Origin: an uncultured delta proteobacterium
Lineage (GTDB): Bacteria > Desulfobacterota > Desulfomonilia > UBA1062
Direction of reading: 5' to 3'
Assembly (NCBI GenBank): GCA_963785235.1
Contig: CAWAUM010000002.1
Span: forward strand, 128,001 to 192,000
DNA: 64,000 bases
Part shown: positions 55,225-63,814 of the stretch, piece by piece
Layout: every line of letters begins with the position of its first letter
How positions within the stretch are numbered: position 1 is the stretch's first letter
Notes under the pieces: model-generated
What the model was told of the DNA's origin: nothing
The model's database searches: none
The model's input: the letters and a program-made list of their open reading frames with translations, nothing else
Program-made: the position numbers and the translations under genes

Positions 55225-55258
55225 AAAAAGGCCCCGTCTTATAAAAAGACAGGGCCTT
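55225..55258. terminator. Bidirectional terminator
   Basis: AAGGCCC-c-GTCTT-ataa-AAGAC-a-GGGCCTT with an A-run on the left (U-tract for the minus strand). Confidence 0.75.
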
Positions 55259-55268
55259 GTATTACTTA

Positions 55269-56558
55269 TTAGTCTTCATCGTCATAACCCGTACCAGGAG
55301 GGGCTTCTGATTTGATTGACCGGTTGATTCCCTTTGAAAGTATGGCTGCAATGGAGAAGAGTATTACCATTGCGCCGAAGAGGATCAGTATGATCGTGGT
55401 CAGCCATGACTGGGCTTCCTTTTCTACCTTACCGGAAGCGATCTTGGCCTGCTCGTTGAACTTTTCAACATCCACACCCATGCCAACCCATCCGAATCCG
55501 GCCGGCTTGGGGTAATCCTTTGCGTAGAAAGGTATGGGAGCATACGCCACTATCTTCGTACGGCCTTCGAATTTATAGGTCTTTATTCCCGATTTGCCCA
55601 ATGCGGCTTCTCTGGCGACCTCAGGCATGACCGGATCAATACCGCCAAGCTGATTGAGGTTCAACACCTCTTCACCCTTATTTTTCATTTCCTCGGCAAT
55701 GGCTGAGGTCAGCGGCGGAACAGGTGTACCATCCTTGTAGAGGCCTTCTATATGATAATCATTGGGGTGCGAGATAACAAACCCTCGGTTATCAACCATG
55801 TATGCATAGTTTCCCGTGGAGGCGTCCGCTTCTATGACGTAATTCGCCTCGAACGGCACGATGTTATCCGTGTATTTGGCAAGGGCCCTTGCATCAAGCG
55901 CAAGTTCTATGACCCCGGTAAAACCCTGCTTATCGAACAGCGGAGTTGCCATTCGAATAATCCCTTCGAATCTCTTCCCTTTTTCAAAATCAGCCTTGTT
56001 AACATACCACCCAGTGACAGGAGAGATATACATCTCACCCTTGTTGAGCTCTTTTGCCTTGAGGAAGTACTCCTCAGACTTATACGTTGTGTTGGCAGGA
56101 TTGCTCACATTTACTAATTCGTTTTTGGGGGCTATCTTGCCATCTTTAATTTTTATGAGCTCATTTCCATTGGTGTCTATGAGTGACATTTCCACATAGA
56201 GTGGCAGCTGTTCCTTTACGATGCCTGTATCTTTTTTAACCCAGAGTTCATACGTCTTGGTATCCAAGAACTGCTTATATGTCTCCTGGGTTGAAGGAAG
56301 GATTGTGGTGGTTAACACATCCCTCTGACGTTCACGCAAGAAGTTGGAGATATTCTCTGCCAAATCAGTTGCGCGCACACTGAGCTCCTGTTGCGATTTC
56401 GTATCAAGAGCATTCATCGTACCTGTTTTGGATAAGCCGCCAATATTGAAAATGCTGAAGGCTATGAGGGAAGCGATCAGTAATAAGGGGATCACGACAA
56501 GCAGGAAAAATAACCTTGCAACCGTTAATAAACGAGTTCCTTTAATCGATTCAGGCAT
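55269..56558 (-). CDS. Two-TM periplasmic Cache-domain protein lacking any cytoplasmic output domain
   Basis: TM1, dCache-like motifs (EMSLID.NG.E, YISPV, ATPLF, YAYMVD..GFVISHP, AYAPI, W.G.GV), TM2, then a ~22-aa tail ending GYDDED-stop. Confidence 0.82.
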   Translation of the reverse strand: MPESIKGTRLLTVARLFFLLVVIPLLLIASLIAFSIFNIGGLSKTGTMNALDTKSQQELSVRATDLAENISNFLRERQRDVLTTTILPSTQETYKQFLDTKTYELWVKKDTGIVKEQLPLYVEMSLIDTNGNELIKIKDGKIAPKNELVNVSNPANTTYKSEEYFLKAKELNKGEMYISPVTGWYVNKADFEKGKRFEGIIRMATPLFDKQGFTGVIELALDARALAKYTDNIVPFEANYVIEADASTGNYAYMVDNRGFVISHPNDYHIEGLYKDGTPVPPLTSAIAEEMKNKGEEVLNLNQLGGIDPVMPEVAREAALGKSGIKTYKFEGRTKIVAYAPIPFYAKDYPKPAGFGWVGMGVDVEKFNEQAKIASGKVEKEAQSWLTTIILILFGAMVILFSIAAILSKGINRSIKSEAPPGTGYDDED

Positions 56559-56611
56559 TTTTTCCCCCTTATTCTTTGAATCGTTCTGTTAAAAACCCTC
56601 TGTCCAAAAGC

Positions 56612-56989
56612 TTATCCAAACAGGAAAGTCTTGAATGGGTTGGCGAAGATGAGGATGAGCGTAATAACCAGCGCATAGATAGCGATGGATTCGGCCATGG
56701 CCATACCAACCATCATTGTCATCATGATCTTTCCCTGTGCCGCTGGGTTTCTGCCTACTGCCTCAGAGGCGCCTGCTGCTGCTGCGCCAATGCCTGCGCC
56801 TGCACCGATGCACCCAAGGCCGATAGCAAAGCCTGCGCCGAGCATTGCGCCGACCGAGAAGATCACCTTGATAAGCGGATCCTGAGCAGCCGGGATTGCA
56901 TCAGCTGCGAAGACTCCCTGTGACGCTAGAAGCGAAAGGGCCACTGTTGTTGCAATTGTGAAGAAGATTTTGGTCGCGTTACGAAACAT
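56612..56989 (-). CDS. atpE: Orphan F-type ATP synthase subunit c with N-terminal extension
   Basis: G.G..GAG.GIG glycine zipper, GRNP loop, AMAESIAIYAL with ion-binding Glu, FANPF; AAGGAG RBS. Confidence 0.95.
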   Translation of the reverse strand: MFRNATKIFFTIATTVALSLLASQGVFAADAIPAAQDPLIKVIFSVGAMLGAGFAIGLGCIGAGAGIGAAAAGASEAVGRNPAAQGKIMMTMMVGMAMAESIAIYALVITLILIFANPFKTFLFG

Positions 56990-57063
56990 GTTTATTCTCC
57001 TTTCTAACTGATAATTTTTTCGTATTCATTTTGACTGAGTCCTCATTTCTCTCATTCAAGAAA

Positions 57064-57079
57064 AGCAATAGCTATGCCA
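57064..57079 (-). promoter_or_regulatory. Sigma54 -24/-12 promoter for atpE-Cache
   Basis: Minus strand TGGCATAGCTATTGCT, near consensus, ~75 bp upstream of the atpE ATG. Confidence 0.85.
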
Positions 57080-57175
57080 CGTTGTGACAGTGTTAATATT
57101 TCTCCTGTACCAACTTGATATTAATATCTAATTTAGCTATGAATTCTGTGTATCACCCACTTTGCCTGAACAATA

Positions 57176-57198
57176 CTATTAAACGTATCGTTCAATAG
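57176..57198. promoter_or_regulatory. Candidate enhancer palindrome for the atpE sigma54 promoter
   Basis: CTATT-a-AACG-tat-CGTT-c-AATAG, ~100-120 bp upstream of the -24 element, separated by AT-rich DNA. Confidence 0.5.
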
Positions 57199-57439
57199 AG
57201 TCTCATCATGTTGAACAAAAAGTGTTATATGCCCCATGAACCATCAGTATACTCCCTGAAGGATATTCATCGAGAGCTCCCAAAAACATCCTTTTTGTAT
57301 CTAGTTTAAAGAACTTCTCATGGATGGATAAGGTTCGTGATGGAATGAAGTAATGATAAGGAGTTGCTATTGGTATTACAAGGGGGTGAGCTGCGAGGGA
57401 TTGTTTTGATTTGTAGCTGGGCACCAAACAATAGCTGGT

Positions 57440-57719
57440 ATTTACATAGGACTAGATATAATGACTTGGTCAGTCCTACCGGCATAGCAGAAACAAGGAA
57501 GAAGCCGAAAATGAAACTGCAAATACCCACTATCCAGATGCTGGATGCATACTGGAGAAGCAAGGGCAGGGGGATAGACATACTCATAGCCAGTACCAGG
57601 AATACCTTTCTTCTGTGGTATTTATCCGAGAGGGCCGAGATTACTCCCGCCCCGAATATACATCCACCCACAAGGAGGCCACCCATAATGCCCGGGACAA
57701 GGGTTGAATCGATGCCCAA
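57440..57719 (-). pseudogene. Fragment of an MFS transporter (C-terminal half helices)
   Basis: GAGVISALSDKYHRRK (MFS motif A-like) with three hydrophobic helices; no N-terminal half; degenerates after MPVGL. Confidence 0.65.
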
Positions 57720-57744
57720 TTATTTGTGGATGCATCCTATTGCA

Positions 57745-57786
57745 TGCACTTCATGCCCCGGTCGTGGGACCGGGGCATGAAGTGCA
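57745..57786. repeat. Perfect 19-bp inverted repeat/hairpin
   Basis: TGCACTTCATGCCCCGGTC-gtgg-GACCGGGGCATGAAGTGCA just downstream of the outer-membrane protein gene. Confidence 0.85.
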
Positions 57787-57802
57787 CCCTTTTTAACCTG
57801 TA

Positions 57803-59122
57803 CTAAATCGAGTAATCGAACCCGACAGCGAAGATCCAGGTTGAATTCTTCATGTCCACTGTACCGATGGGGGTTACAATGCTCTCATCTTTCCACCATG
57901 TATAACTGAGCCCGCAATTCAGGTTAAGGCCGGGAAGGACCTTGTAACCGAATCCCGCTGCAAGGTTCACATCATCCGAATACTGAACTTCAACAGACCC
58001 GGGAGTCGCATTGTAGTATGCGTCAATATCGTCCCATCTAAAGAGGGTGTACAGCGTTCCTGCGCTGACTTCCAGTTCAGGTGAGACCTGATAGACCCCC
58101 GCAACCCCGATACTCCAGCAATCACCGGCTAGGTTGGAAATATCCTTTCCAGTTGATGCCTTTCCCCAATTGGCTGCGCTCTGGAACCAGTAATTGGCAT
58201 CCAGCTCACCCCTGAATTTCGGTGTGAACAGGTACGATGCACCCATGCCGATCATGCCGGGGAAATCCCTGCGATTCTTTTCTCCATCTGAGTATAACCC
58301 AACTGACTCGCTGATATTGTCTCCACCCCTGATATCTGTCTTGAGATCCAGTTTCACCGGGGATTCGTAATGCAGAGCGAGATTCAATTTGTCATCCGGC
58401 CTTACCTGAACACCCAGCACCCCGCCCCATCCGTTATCTTCCTGTTCCACATTGACCTTTAACGGGTAATCCGGTGTAGCATCCCCCCCAACGCCGCCTG
58501 TCATCGTCAGACCCCCTTTGATGGAATTAGACACGGAGATGTTACGGATACCGGCAGCAACTGAGATCTTGTCTGAGATCTTATAGGCACCCCCCAAACT
58601 TGTTGCGAGATAGACCGAAGTGCCCTTGAGGTGCTCATTTGTGATGCCGGTGTAGGCTCCATAAAAGGGACTAGCCGGGTCAGTTAATAATTGTGCACCA
58701 AGCCCTCGGGTAGTGATGGAACCATCCGGGTAGTCGATGGACCCCGCACTACCCGGCATGTACAAACCACCGAAGATGGACCACAGTCCTTTCTTGTAGG
58801 AGGCATAGAGGTTGGGAACGAACAAGTCCGGGCTGTCCTGTTCATAGCTCAGCCGGCCGGTGCCCAGAGGATCATTAAAGGAATGGCTGGGCTTCCGGAA
58901 CATCATCTGATTCGAGACATTGAGATGAAACCCGTCGGACAGACTGACCAGACCGGCCGGGTTGTACACCACAATATCTGCCGCATCGGTAGCGGCATTG
59001 CGGTTGGACATGCGCACCCATTCCGCACTCATGTTGGTCAGGTTGTCAATCTGGGCAAAGCCCTGCCCGGAGGATAAAAATAGACAAGTGATTATGCCCG
59101 AGGCGATCAGAAGGTGTTTCAT
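57803..59122 (-). CDS. FadL/OmpP1-family outer membrane transporter
   Basis: Signal peptide, A.D....YNPAGL hatch motif, alternating beta-strands, aromatic C-terminal strand (GFDYSI). Confidence 0.82.
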   Translation of the reverse strand: MKHLLIASGIITCLFLSSGQGFAQIDNLTNMSAEWVRMSNRNAATDAADIVVYNPAGLVSLSDGFHLNVSNQMMFRKPSHSFNDPLGTGRLSYEQDSPDLFVPNLYASYKKGLWSIFGGLYMPGSAGSIDYPDGSITTRGLGAQLLTDPASPFYGAYTGITNEHLKGTSVYLATSLGGAYKISDKISVAAGIRNISVSNSIKGGLTMTGGVGGDATPDYPLKVNVEQEDNGWGGVLGVQVRPDDKLNLALHYESPVKLDLKTDIRGGDNISESVGLYSDGEKNRRDFPGMIGMGASYLFTPKFRGELDANYWFQSAANWGKASTGKDISNLAGDCWSIGVAGVYQVSPELEVSAGTLYTLFRWDDIDAYYNATPGSVEVQYSDDVNLAAGFGYKVLPGLNLNCGLSYTWWKDESIVTPIGTVDMKNSTWIFAVGFDYSI

Positions 59123-59554
59123 AAAGGATCTCCTTTCAAAAGGATCTATTCTATGGTTACCCCAAATGACCTATCCTTTAAACACAGGCTTATTACCACT
59201 CACGGAACCCGGCAAGAAGGGGTTACCGTATACCATGATATACAATTGTATAATAATGAACAGGACTATTCCAGCCAAATACATGACCAATGTGTCCAAA
59301 AATGGGGGTGAACTATCATCAGATGAATATCAAAGAGCTCAGAAGGCAAGAAGATCGGAGCTCTTAGATATGACTGACAGGCTTCCAGCATAATATCCAT
59401 AGAATGGGATGGCAGGTTAAGCCGAAGCAAGTATGAACCTTCAGGCTGCATAAACAACTTTGAAGGCTGCTAATATTACAGACAGTTCGTGACTTTATTA
59501 AAGCCGTATACTATAAGATAAGGAAAAGCACGTACAACGTAAAAAGGTATAGAG

Positions 59555-59803: not shown

Positions 59804-62368
59804 ATGAAAAAGAAGATATCCAGCATATACCTGAGATACTCCATCTGGTTGACTGCATTAACCGTTATTGTCCTGATAGTCCTCCTTGCCCTGACCGTTT
59901 ACTATGTGCGCGAACGGGCCATAATAGAGCTTTTCAGCGACCAACAGGCATTTATTGCAGGCCATACGGCATCCCGTATAGAGGAGTCTATTGCCAAGGG
60001 TGAGAAGGGCGTGAGCATGCTCTTGAAGCTGTTATCCACTCAAGGAGCGGGCGAGTTGAGGAAACAAGAGGAGATAAAGACCCTTTATAATGAACTCAGG
60101 GAAAACGTGCTCACCATTTTGGAGATAGATAAGAATGATGTTGCTGTCTATGGATATCCGGAAGATATTTCATCAAGGATGTATGGGAAGAAAATAGAAG
60201 ACTTTGCCCTCTACCATGTACTGAAAAAGATGAATCAAAGATTTATCGGAGAAATCAGAGGCTTAAATATCATAGACAACAAAAACCAGTCATCTCAAGG
60301 TAAGAATATTGGAATTGGTCTGCCTGTTATAACCTCGGGCGGCACCTATGCCGGGGCGATATTGGCAATAATCTCTCCTGAGTTACTCATCAAGCGATTC
60401 ATATCCCTCAATCAAACCCGCACTATGAATATGTACTGGTTGGTTGATGAATCAGGTGCCATAATCTATCATCCCGACCAGGCCAGTATAGGAAAAAATA
60501 TTGCGGAATTGACGCCCCAAGGAAATGCGCCTTTTAAAATGTTTTCTTACACATCGAAACACTACAGCGAGATGACTCTTAACCAGAAAGACAAACAGGA
60601 AAAGTGCATTATTGCCTATTCCCCCATCCGTATAGGCATTGCAAAGTGGTGGATCATTCTCGTTACCCCCTATGAAGATGTCTTAAAACCTATTCGCAGT
60701 GCATCGTTAAACATTATTCTCGGTGCAATAGGCCTTATTACCGTTGTCATCATCACAGCCATATCCATTGCCCGTTCCGATGTAAAACGATTCCGGCTCA
60801 AAGAAGAGCTTAAACGGCTACAGGAGCGGGAGGTATGGCAGGGAAAGCTTTTGCGCGAGAAGATGACCATTGAAGGGATCGTTGAAGGATCCCCGGTCCC
60901 TATGTTTGTGCTGGATCAAGATCATAAGGTTATCTTGTGGAATCGCGCATGTACTGATCTTACCGGGTACAGCGCAGATGAGATGATCAACACGGATAAT
61001 TACTACAAGCCATTCTATGAAGACAAACGACCATTCCTCCTTGACTTCATCATCGATGGCAATGTGGAGGACTTTGAAGCATTTTATGGTGAAGGCAAGG
61101 TCTTGAAATCCGAATCCATCAAAGGGGCATATGAGGCAGTAAAATATTTTAAAAACTTAAGTGGTAAAGAACGACACCTGCATTTCCTTGCTGCTCCGAT
61201 TTTCGATGAAAAAGGCGAAATTGTTGCTGCCATAGAGACCTTTCTCGATGTATCAAAAGAAGTGGAGCTCACGAAGAACCTCCAGGAATACGCTGAAACC
61301 CTTCAAAACGAACTGGATGAGAACATCAGGCTTACGAAAGAGGTGGAAGAGCTCTATAGTTATCTTCAGAGCATATTGAACAGTCTGCCTGATAAGATTT
61401 ATGAGCTGAATAAAGACGGCATTATCAATTATGTCAGCAGGCAGATACGCAGAGGCACGTACGATCCAAAGGGAAAACCCTTCACGGAATATGTGGCCCC
61501 GGAGCACAGGGCTTATGTCATCTCCAAATGGGAGGATGCAAAAAGAGGGATTTTTAAACCCTATGAGCTTGAGATGCTCAGCAGAAAGGGCACAAGGAAA
61601 CATCTCCTGATGACACCAAGCCCTGTAAAGGGCACTGATAGATTCGTTCTGGTGGAGCGGGATATTACCGAACTGAAAGACCTTGAAAAAAAATATTATG
61701 AAAGTCAGAAACTCGCAGCTATTGGTCAATTATCAGCAGGGATTGCCCATGAAGTGAGAAATCCTCTTTCGTCGATAAAAATGAGCCTGCAGATTCTGGA
61801 AAAACGCATGAAGCCTGAAGGCAATGACCTTAAGCGATTCAAGATTGCCCAAAGAGAGGTCGAGCACCTCGAGAAGCTTGTCAGCGATGTACTCATTTAT
61901 GCAAAGCCCACAGCCCCCCGTAAAGATCCGTCTGATTTAAGGTCAATCATTGAGAGTGCCCTTGCCATGGTTGAAAAATCTCTTGAAGACAAGGCTATTG
62001 ACCTGCAGAAAATATATGCACCCGGCAATGATATTATCCCTGTGGATTCACAAATGATCAAACAAGCGCTTATCAATATTTTTCAGAATGCTATCGATGC
62101 AATGGAGCCGCAGGGAAGGCTCTCTATCGGTTTGCGCAAAGAAAATGAATCCCTCCTCATAGAGGTTGATGACAATGGTTGTGGGATAGATGAGGAAGAT
62201 ATCCCCTACCTGTTCAATCCTTTCTTTACCAAGAAGAATTATGGAACCGGCCTTGGTCTTACCCAGGTTAAGAAAATCATTGAACAGCACAATGGAGAAA
62301 TAGAGATAATAAGCAAAAAAGGGTTAGGCACACGATTTATCATTACCCTCCCAACGGGTGTTACATGA
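59804..62368 (+). CDS. Cache-PAS-PAS sensor histidine kinase
   Basis: Two TM with dCache-like YWLVD.SG.IIYHP/AYSPI; two PAS; AHEVRNPL, NAIDA, DNGCG, FNPFFT, GTGLG. Confidence 0.93.
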   Translation: MKKKISSIYLRYSIWLTALTVIVLIVLLALTVYYVRERAIIELFSDQQAFIAGHTASRIEESIAKGEKGVSMLLKLLSTQGAGELRKQEEIKTLYNELRENVLTILEIDKNDVAVYGYPEDISSRMYGKKIEDFALYHVLKKMNQRFIGEIRGLNIIDNKNQSSQGKNIGIGLPVITSGGTYAGAILAIISPELLIKRFISLNQTRTMNMYWLVDESGAIIYHPDQASIGKNIAELTPQGNAPFKMFSYTSKHYSEMTLNQKDKQEKCIIAYSPIRIGIAKWWIILVTPYEDVLKPIRSASLNIILGAIGLITVVIITAISIARSDVKRFRLKEELKRLQEREVWQGKLLREKMTIEGIVEGSPVPMFVLDQDHKVILWNRACTDLTGYSADEMINTDNYYKPFYEDKRPFLLDFIIDGNVEDFEAFYGEGKVLKSESIKGAYEAVKYFKNLSGKERHLHFLAAPIFDEKGEIVAAIETFLDVSKEVELTKNLQEYAETLQNELDENIRLTKEVEELYSYLQSILNSLPDKIYELNKDGIINYVSRQIRRGTYDPKGKPFTEYVAPEHRAYVISKWEDAKRGIFKPYELEMLSRKGTRKHLLMTPSPVKGTDRFVLVERDITELKDLEKKYYESQKLAAIGQLSAGIAHEVRNPLSSIKMSLQILEKRMKPEGNDLKRFKIAQREVEHLEKLVSDVLIYAKPTAPRKDPSDLRSIIESALAMVEKSLEDKAIDLQKIYAPGNDIIPVDSQMIKQALINIFQNAIDAMEPQGRLSIGLRKENESLLIEVDDNGCGIDEEDIPYLFNPFFTKKNYGTGLGLTQVKKIIEQHNGEIEIISKKGLGTRFIITLPTGVT

Positions 62369-62434: not shown

Positions 62435-63814
62435 ATGCCGAAGATACTTGTCATCGATGATGATAGCTCGATCCGCGAGACACTGGACCTTTATCTGACA
62501 GAAGAAGGGTACGATGTCTATACAGCACCCACAGGGACGGACGGCCTCAACACATTCACCCAACAATCGCCTGATGTAGTCATCCTGGATATCAGGCTTC
62601 CTGATGTAAACGGTTTTATGATCCTCGAAGATCTCAGAGAAGAGGATGAAAACGTAAAGGTCATCATGATTACTGCCCATCATGACATGGAATCAACCAT
62701 CAAAGCCATGAAGGAAGGTGCCTTTGACTACATCCACAAACCAGTGGATGTCAATGAACTGGATATCGCTATTAAAAAGGCCATCCATGCATTAGAGATG
62801 GAGAAAAAGATAAAGGGTCTTCTTGTTGAGTCCTCACGGGATTACAAGGTCGGCGACATCATTGGTGAAGGCCCCGGGATGAGGGAGATCTTCAAGACAA
62901 TCGGTGTGGTATCTCAAAGCAGAACCCCGGTGCTTATTCAAGGCGAAAGCGGAACAGGCAAAGAACTCATTGCCAAGGTTATTCATAATAACACCGCTGC
63001 GGATGAACCATATATCGGAATAAACTGCTCTGCAATTGTAGAGACCTTGCTTGAATCAGAGCTGTTCGGCCATGAGAAGGGGTCGTTTACCGGGGCCATC
63101 ACGCGTAAACCCGGCAAATTCGAGCTGGCCCGCTATGGCACGGTATTCCTTGATGAAATTAGCGAGATGTCTTTGAATCTTCAGGCAAAGCTCCTTCGGG
63201 TCCTTCAGGAGAGGGAATTCGAGCGTGTAGGCGGGAAAGACCGGATCAAGGTAAATGCCAGGATCATTGCAGCCACAAACAAAGACCTCCGGGCAATGGC
63301 AAAAGAAGGGCATTTCAGGGATGATCTGTATTACCGACTGAACATCGTTACCATATTTATTCCGCCGCTCAGGGAAAGAAGAGAAGACCTTCAACCGCTT
63401 ATCAATTATTTATTATCCAAGATTAATTTCGATCTCCATAAACATATCGCAGGGGTTTCCGATGATGTGCTCGAGATCTTCAGACAGTATAGCTGGCCCG
63501 GTAACATCCGGGAGCTTGAAAACCTCCTCGTTCGTGCGGCAGTAGTTGCCAAGGGGCAGGTCTTGATAAAGAGCGACTTTCCAGACCTGAACGAGACTGC
63601 CGGGTTCCAGATAACAAGGGAACCAGAGGTGGATTACAGCCATGATGCCTTGGGCAGAATCCTCACCCTCGATGAAGTCGAAGAGATGCATATAAGGAAA
63701 GTGATCAGAGAAACAAAAAAGAACAAAGGCGAGGTCTGTGATATCCTGGGGATCTCCAGGCCGACATTCGAGAGAAAACTTGAGAAATACAATATCCAAT
63801 TTGAACGTGACTGA
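62435..63814 (+). CDS. NtrC-family sigma54 response regulator
   Basis: IDDD..LDIRLP..KP receiver; GESGTGKE, GSFTGA, WPGNIREL, Fis HTH. Confidence 0.95.
   Translation: MPKILVIDDDSSIRETLDLYLTEEGYDVYTAPTGTDGLNTFTQQSPDVVILDIRLPDVNGFMILEDLREEDENVKVIMITAHHDMESTIKAMKEGAFDYIHKPVDVNELDIAIKKAIHALEMEKKIKGLLVESSRDYKVGDIIGEGPGMREIFKTIGVVSQSRTPVLIQGESGTGKELIAKVIHNNTAADEPYIGINCSAIVETLLESELFGHEKGSFTGAITRKPGKFELARYGTVFLDEISEMSLNLQAKLLRVLQEREFERVGGKDRIKVNARIIAATNKDLRAMAKEGHFRDDLYYRLNIVTIFIPPLRERREDLQPLINYLLSKINFDLHKHIAGVSDDVLEIFRQYSWPGNIRELENLLVRAAVVAKGQVLIKSDFPDLNETAGFQITREPEVDYSHDALGRILTLDEVEEMHIRKVIRETKKNKGEVCDILGISRPTFERKLEKYNIQFERD

Follow-up and report, generated by a model that had tools for sequence, protein, structure and literature searches.

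Why should a bacterium encode a rotor subunit of its adenosine triphosphate (ATP) synthase away from every other atp gene, and why should that subunit be accompanied by a sensor-like protein with no output domain through which to signal? The question is raised by a stretch of 64,000 nucleotides (nt) from an uncultured delta proteobacterium of the class Desulfomonilia, which is referred to below as the window (G000:C2:128001-192000, where G000 is genome GCA_963785235.1 as analysed here and C1, C2 and so on are its contigs, 13 in the assembly). Two genes make up the unit:

56612..56989, minus strand: F-type ATP synthase c-subunit paralogue ('cB'), 125 amino acids (aa), matching PF00137
55269..56558, minus strand: output-less double-Cache protein with two transmembrane (TM) segments, 429 aa, with an acidic C-terminal tail (YDDED), matching dCache_1

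The genes and their motifs are intact, a paralogous second pair lies elsewhere in the same genome, and both the adjacency and the functional residues are conserved among relatives. The answer towards which we lean, with a little less than even confidence, is that this rotor subunit is an inducible alternative on which its Cache-only partner acts directly.

The adjacency, on which the preliminary description of this DNA had staked its proposal, is kept wherever the sequence permits it to be seen. In a survey of 24 other genomes of G000's Desulfomonilia family, spread over 11 genera, a Cache-only homologue is present in every one (24/24), and most genomes of the window's genus have both of the paralogues described below; at each of the 25 Cache-only loci of this survey the gene immediately upstream, in the same orientation, encodes a c subunit. 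The sister family has five loci at which the homologue is part of a long protein, and a c gene is upstream of none of these (0/5). Species-representative genomes were also searched more widely with a profile, and 245 loci were confirmed. The 80 best of these were used; all are of the window's type, and they come from metagenome-assembled genomes (MAGs) of Desulfomonilia and Syntrophales. The c gene is upstream in 71 of the 80; eight of the other nine end within 208 nt of the Cache gene, and the ninth is masked with Ns, the 3' end of its c gene remaining visible. That is to say, every Cache-only locus with enough upstream sequence has a c gene directly upstream. The spacer between the two genes is short: the Cache frame begins 53 nt past the c stop codon in the window, 13 of 16 loci of the window's type have 51-55 nt and two have 33 nt, the last being an assembly-fused locus. 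That locus (L017:706-2538, in genome G010) contains a 610-aa frame joining c to Cache, a would-be Rosetta-stone fusion that was rejected as a probable assembly artefact or pseudogene. The frame, which comes from an 86%-complete MAG, results from an in-frame deletion of 66 nt and also has a 3' frameshift, and it is topologically implausible, since the fusion would leave its Cache domain on the wrong face of the membrane. One genome, G426, has a Cache gene with an out-of-frame middle segment; as its kinase gene and the start of its c gene are also broken, this fits indel errors in a one-contig assembly, and the genome is uninformative as a case of natural loss.

The second pair of G000 (C1:729292-731143) repeats the arrangement. 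Its Cache protein, of 431 aa, is 34% identical to that of the window (145/425, E 7e-94), has the same architecture and ends in DDED; its spacer measures 187 nt, within which no terminator-like site was found, and loci of this second type have spacers of 94-194 nt. Adjacency of c and Cache is retained in all nine loci of the type, as well as in G000 and G044. A search upstream of the G000 second pair found no sigma-54 motif. An open reading frame (ORF) of 515 aa lies directly upstream of the second pair (C1:727593-729140); by eye its N-terminus is like that of a type II/IV secretion ATPase (a GspE/MshE-type N-terminal domain).

The Cache protein is, to judge from its homologues, not truncated: the output-less form is the native form. 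As had been described from the window alone, it is a Cache protein with two TM segments; it has a dCache_1 match (E 2e-14), and it stops about 20 aa beyond the second TM segment without a kinase, methyl-accepting chemotaxis protein (MCP), cyclase or HAMP transmitter. In an AlphaFold model (predicted local distance difference test score, pLDDT, 83.7) a two-lobed alpha/beta domain is flanked by two TM helices, a long one at the N-terminus (approximately residues 5-48) and another at the C-terminus (approximately 364-418). A Foldseek search of the PDB with this model gave 141 matches (E <= 0.001), with dCache ligand-binding domains heading the list, among them Mlp24 (6iop, E 2.6e-12), vpHK1S-Z8, PctA/B/C and Tlp3. 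An alignment of 20 sequences has 56 invariant columns, counted over the whole protein. Many of these are aromatic or charged (Y121, E123, E162, D231, Y328), and others fall in the predicted TM segments (F17, L20, P24 and L25 in the first helix; I403, L407, G410 and R413 in the last); conservation in fact runs the full length of the Cache-only alignment, both terminal helices and the acidic tail included. The best 120 homologues are all 373-458 aa long, and the Cache-only frames of the family relatives are 428-457 aa long, the fused locus L017 excepted. A Protein Atlas search with the protein found generic dCache clusters only, and the 240 homologues listed include none from a named cultured isolate.

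Where might such a protein have come from? Among 401 genomes sampled across the phylum, the short form (at least 510 bits) is found in 19, from six families; a further 27 have weaker matches only (at most 317 bits), nearly all of which lie within frames of 827-1217 aa. The short form is, on these scores, a discrete class. The preliminary description had counted homologues that continue into HAMP and kinase domains as a sign of truncation or sequencing error. Such homologues do exist; they are distant, however, the nearest output-bearing relatives being only about 35% identical (one example is a 1053-aa dCache-HAMP-GAF-PAS-HisKA-HATPase protein, 35% identical over 397 aa), and this speaks for ancestry from a kinase sensor and not for truncation. 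Neighbours were scanned around 11 kinase-fused loci (selected neighbours only, 52 ORFs altogether). A sigma-54 response regulator adjoins in 8/11, carboxylate transporters of the TRAP, TAXI or DASS kind in 5/11, two of these five also with an Na+-decarboxylase beta subunit, and Peripla_BP_6 binding proteins in 2/11. The Cache-only family has the look of a sensor module from a DctB-like kinase lineage, now working without its transmitter. The transporters next to its kinase-fused relatives make carboxylates a lead to the ligand of the Cache-only protein and nothing more; the assignment is speculative. The kinase-fused loci themselves (L145, L148-L157), which belong to other families of the phylum, resemble a DctB-like regulon family in Desulfobacterota.

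The c subunit is an orthodox one. The window's frame matches PF00137 (ATP-synt_C) at E 4.1e-17 and 62.6 bits, where the cut-off is 24 bits, and it encodes a signal-peptide-like N-terminus, a Gly-rich first TM helix, a GRNP loop and a Glu within MAESIAIY; the earlier recognition of an intact F-type atpE was correct. Its closest solved structures are the c1 subunit of Acetobacterium woodii (4BEM) and the c subunits of Spirulina, the chloroplast and Ilyobacter tartaricus (1YCE, E 2.7e-15). The loop residues R80-N81-P82, together with E100, S101 and Y105, are invariant in Cache-linked c subunits of the window's type, in 16/16 sequences from the family and 77-78/78 from the wider set, and the R-N-P loop and E100 (in window numbering) are kept in 11/11 subunits of the second-pair type. 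A table of 132 c subunits in six context classes extends this: R80-N81-P82, E100, S101, Y105 and N117-P118 are invariant across every F-like class, both Cache-linked classes included. The RNP loop of the c subunit is the contact to gamma and epsilon of F1. Its invariance argues that the Cache-linked subunits still serve an F1Fo enzyme and are not a free-standing conduit, and since the window's c keeps both the loop and the ion-binding Glu we infer that it most likely enters an F-type ATP synthase. The suggestion, made in the preliminary description, of a c-ring repurposed as an ion conduit is disfavoured on the same ground. The other suggestion made there, that the isoform changes ring stoichiometry, found no support: the window's c and the other isoform have a G-x-G-x-G-x-G motif of the same kind. 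Each of the two is a single hairpin.

The c paralogues form sequence classes of their own and are not recent copies of the housekeeping c. On a 42-row tree the five F-like c classes each hold together (supports 92-96), and a constraint holding both Cache-linked classes as a single clade is not rejected (p-AU, from the approximately unbiased test, 0.70), which fits one origin of the c-Cache pair and its later duplication as a unit. Independent recruitment of Cache proteins to two c lineages, at which a 94-row quick tree had hinted, was dropped in view of that value. K41 and certain loop residues are common to the Cache-linked c subunits and the unpaired c subunits of Syntrophales. One helix-1 position, at the ion site, differs between the classes: A. 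woodii c1 and chloroplast c align there with Q, as does the housekeeping (atpB-adjacent) c of G000's family (12/12), against I in the window's class and M in the second-pair class. As the only c subunit of the sister family also has M there, no conclusion about ion specificity is drawn. The housekeeping c (C1:339802-340167, with relatives L122-L132) has an extra Glu ten residues past the ion-binding Glu in 12/12 sequences. Neither its Q nor this extra Glu is seen in the c subunit of the sister family, and the housekeeping c sits on a long branch of the tree.

What enzyme could the window's c join? ORF reading together with a search for a subunits assigns four c genes to G000: one in an N-ATPase operon on C7, one next to atpB on C1, that of the window and that of the second pair (C1:729292-729660). 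The window's gene is therefore not the sole atpE of the genome, as the preliminary description had required of its proposal. The housekeeping Fo cluster on C1 has its c gene directly after atpZ-, atpI- and atpB-like genes, and there are three F-like c genes to one F-type a subunit. The window's c is not encoded with other Fo genes. The earlier statement that the 64-kb window holds no other atp gene stands: matches to PF00119 (a subunit) are confined to C1 and C7, and those to PF00006 (alpha/beta) to C1, C3, C7 and C2:123730-124341, the last being outside the window. The F-type F1 genes are at C1:574-580 kb. Of these, atpA and atpD (C1:575805-577158 and 578202-579651) are each split over two frames by single-base indels, in atpA by one extra base near 576.66 kb; the breaks are probably sequencing errors of the long-read indel kind. 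In Syntrophales the connection to Fo genes is closer. At eight of the 80 loci, all from that order, atpZ-atpI-atpB lie just past the two-component genes, with atpB about 5 kb from the pair; four genomes of the order have no c gene next to atpB, their unpaired c gene being 6 kb to 1.1 Mb away. The N-ATPase-type operon of G000 (C7:24652-31450) is complete and runs, in order, through beta, epsilon, two small membrane proteins, a, c, b, alpha and gamma, and its c subunit has an extra Glu in helix 1.

The DNA around the pair carries the following signals and genes of likely control:

57064..57079, minus strand: sigma-54 (-24/-12) promoter TGGCATAGCTATTGCT, TGGCAT-N5-TTGCT, the sole pattern match in the window
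57176..57198, minus strand: candidate enhancer (upstream activating sequence) palindrome CTATTGAACG-ATA-CGTTTAATAG, about 100 nt upstream of the sigma-54 promoter
56997..57004, minus strand: Shine-Dalgarno sequence GAAAGGAG ahead of the c gene, read from the sequence
55228..55258, minus strand: terminator-like hairpin after the Cache gene, a 13-pair stem followed by a T run
59804..62368, plus strand: divergent histidine kinase dCache-PAS-PAS-HisKA-HATPase, the presumed regulator (Pfam)
62435..63814, plus strand: NtrC-type response regulator with REC, sigma-54 activator AAA+ and HTH_8 domains (Pfam; Sigma54_activat E 4.4e-67)

The sigma-54 promoter and the palindrome had both been noted in the preliminary description, and both are present. 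The search pattern for the former, TGGCAY-N5-TTGCW, matches 75 nt ahead of the c ATG. Shuffled versions of the window give a mean of 0.19 matches, with at least one match in 16 of 100 shuffles, and the whole genome, both strands taken together, has 33. The motif alone could be chance, then; it is made credible by its conservation, at 88-134 nt ahead of the c start, in 65 of 70 related loci. The genome has an rpoN gene (C11:186555-187031). The half-site of the palindrome, ATTGAAC/GTTCAAT, recurs in 50 of 69 upstream regions, often palindromically and about 205-255 nt before the c start; several relatives have palindromes of the form ATTGAACG-N3-CGTTYAAT about 205 nt ahead of it, and the block 57220-57179 is kept in the more distant relative L038 (86% over 42 nt). 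A GAAAGGA/AAAGGAG ribosome-binding site is found in all 69 upstream regions. Among the 48 related loci whose upstream sequence extends for at least 5.5 kb, 42 have orthologues of the kinase and regulator genes divergently upstream of c. Together these features point to sigma-54 and two-component control of the window's pair. That a terminator follows the Cache gene, with none between the two genes, had also been proposed: the hairpin at 55258-55228 is the one found, and a search of the c-Cache gap in the window found no terminator-like hairpin. The layout suggests that c and Cache are made from one transcript. RNA evidence comes from 16 runs, each with a small share (0.05-0.11) of the sampled words; contigs from four of these runs are short and of low depth, and cover parts of both the c and the Cache genes. 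In these fragmentary contigs no transcript start or end at the locus can be read.

The following sequence of events is envisaged. A signal sensed by the Cache-PAS kinase would activate the NtrC-type regulator, which would bind the upstream palindrome and open the -24/-12 sigma-54 promoter; the c isoform and the Cache partner would then be made together, from one transcript and with the help of a strong ribosome-binding site. The isoform would enter the rotor of the F-type F1Fo enzyme as an alternative or admixed subunit. Its partner, which most likely binds a small periplasmic ligand, would act on the c subunit or the c-ring through its TM helices and tail, by assisting assembly, by stabilising or by braking. 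A protein consisting of a periplasmic domain, two TM helices, a short tail and no output can act only by contact with protein in or at the membrane, and the most plausible contact is the c subunit with which it is always encoded. The manner in which it acts on c is speculative.

Several things weigh against this account of a directly controlled rotor subunit. The contact between c and Cache is speculative. The comparison of the Cache-linked c subunits with the other c classes found no residue that is specific to them, and the Gly motif, being of the same kind in both isoforms, predicts no difference of ring size. Among the RNA contigs of the four runs, none bridges the c-Cache gap with at least 31 nt on each side. 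The absence of the sigma-54 motif from the second pair means that the module does not as such entail sigma-54 control. No relationship to the Cache-only protein is detectable in the sensor of the window's kinase (E 0.009 over 32 aa), so the two need not sense the same thing; the idea that they share a ligand was rejected for this reason. If, finally, the breaks in atpA and atpD were real, the F-type F1 would be defective and the F1 partner of the isoform would be missing. A prediction of the complex of Cache with mature c gave an ipSAE of 0.00 in two runs; these had no controls, and the result is counted neither way.

How do other explanations fare? One would make the Cache protein only a regulatory accessory, a co-sensor or feedback element that modulates, for example, the neighbouring kinase, with the extra c raising gene dosage and the two co-expressed without mutual action. 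This is unlikely, and it is not without appeal: most loci of the window's type have the kinase and the sigma-54 regulator next door, DctB-like kinase sensors are the ancestors of the Cache-only family (the 35% identity over 397 aa cited above), and c subunits are required in many copies per complex. The second pair is its principal difficulty, for the adjacency persists in all nine loci of that type and in G000 and G044, and in G000 it persists away from the presumed regulators: the pair lacks the sigma-54 motif and has no two-component genes among its immediate neighbours, by a reading of ORFs in which the first upstream ORF alone was examined closely. It is further disfavoured by the dissimilarity of the window's kinase sensor to the protein supposed to modulate it, and by the standing of the c paralogues as separate sequence classes and not recent copies of the housekeeping gene. 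Raised in the preliminary description, in the form of an ion conduit, was the idea of an autonomous device: outside F1Fo, copies of the c paralogue would assemble into a ring or oligomer that serves as an ion conduit or belongs to another membrane machine, and the ligand-binding Cache partner would gate it, in a way that recalls the Cache-bearing alpha2-delta subunits of calcium channels. The isolation of the pair from every other atp gene in G000's family, the want of any enzymatic output in the partner and the excess of three F-like c genes over one F-type a subunit would all suit it. It is nevertheless rated improbable, given that none of the tabulated Cache-linked c subunits departs from the R-N-P loop, E100, S101 or Y105 and that the eight Syntrophales loci stand beside an atpZ-atpI-atpB cluster whose atpB has no other adjacent c.

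An explanation with no ligand at all is that the Cache-only protein is a biogenesis factor, a chaperone, insertion or quality-control factor for the c isoform in the manner of AtpI/UncI. Assembly factors of the AtpI type are known for c-rings, and the strict pairing, the short spacer and the invariant residues in the predicted TM segments of the first and last helices are what such a function would lead one to look for. Against this, a periplasmic dCache domain of about 330 aa, in a protein with 56 invariant columns along its whole length, exceeds the needs of a membrane chaperone, and G000 already has atpI- and atpZ-like genes beside atpB; the explanation is accordingly judged improbable. A proposal that goes further than contact as such, and that we consider unlikely though worth entertaining, is that the Cache-only protein is a ligand-sensing auxiliary subunit of the rotary ATP synthase, docking on c or the c-ring through its TM helices and acidic tail, whereby a periplasmic metabolite signal would directly alter the composition or the rotation of the rotor. 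Were this true, the F-type ATP synthase would have its first regulator acting from the periplasmic or membrane side, and this in bacteria living at the thermodynamic limit.

The preferred account, of an inducible alternative rotor subunit under the direct action of its partner, joins elements that are separately familiar. Multiple c isoforms, as in A. woodii, and sigma-54 two-component target operons are known kinds; here an extra c isoform, probably under sigma-54 two-component control, is combined with an output-less sensor. The literature searched yielded nothing on a c subunit paired with a Cache protein, nor on sigma-54 control of atpE, and the earlier remark that no system with this pairing has been described holds to that extent. 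The Na+ F1Fo of A. woodii, with its mixed c-ring (4BEM), likewise has more than one c gene for one F-type enzyme, and among solved structures the window's c and the housekeeping c both find their best matches in 4BEM chains. The c genes of A. woodii lie inside the atp operon, whereas here the extra c is a separate unit with a sigma-54 promoter of its own and an obligate Cache-only partner. The control region is laid out as in DctB/DctD (and also NtrBC, ZraSR and AtoSC), with a dCache kinase and an NtrC-type activator divergent from a -24/-12 promoter with a palindrome. The targets of those systems are a transporter or a nitrogen-assimilation gene; here the target would be a rotor subunit and a kinase-less sensor. 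The alpha2-delta auxiliary subunits, whose Cache domains also lack enzymatic output, accompany voltage-gated calcium channels, and they offer a functional analogy for an output-less Cache protein beside an ion-translocating membrane complex. A physical association is conjectural in the present case, and the alpha2-delta system is eukaryotic, of another architecture and without a detectable sequence link. AtpI/UncI and AtpZ are, like the Cache-only protein, accessory membrane proteins genetically tied to c (in their case to c and a), but they are small, have no periplasmic sensor domain, belong to other families and are encoded in the operon and not beside a spare c gene.

For syntrophic and related anaerobes energy comes in quanta of less than one ATP, so that the ion-per-ATP ratio and the direction of their ATP synthase are central to their physiology. 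A rotor subunit with regulation of its own that pairs strictly with a sensor-like membrane protein in two classes of Desulfobacterota, and is duplicated in one family, points to a tuning or control of the rotor that is not in the textbooks. The module also provides a concrete case in which to ask what an output-less Cache protein does.

The region between the kinase gene and the c promoter has a history of its own. In comparison with a 96%-identical relative (L036), the window at about 57423-59400 is an insertion. The region contains a FadL/Toluene_X outer-membrane gene (57803-59122) and a 133-aa remnant of a major facilitator superfamily (MFS) protein (57318-57719), and a strong hairpin (57745-57786) separates the FadL-like gene from the c promoter. 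That gene was considered as a member of the unit and rejected: it has no match in the 80 related loci and it sits in the insertion that L036 lacks. A 98%-identical relative, L035, has a different insertion of about 1.3 kb at approximately 57466, which marks this intergenic region as an insertion hotspot.

A further likeness to A. woodii is that family relatives carry a fused multi-hairpin c beside a normal one. These genomes have a second Fo cluster, in which the a-subunit gene is followed by a 487-aa ORF of six fused c hairpins (L158:1699-3162, plus strand, in G024). The Glu is kept in the first hairpin only, Gln occupying that position in the others; next come a normal single c with an ESTGIY motif (L158:3224-3472) and then b subunits. 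Similar runs of fused hairpins occur in G016:C297, G019:C41, G020:C296, G021:C137 and G022:C41. A bacterial six-hairpin c subunit of this kind would sharply lower the ion/ATP ratio.

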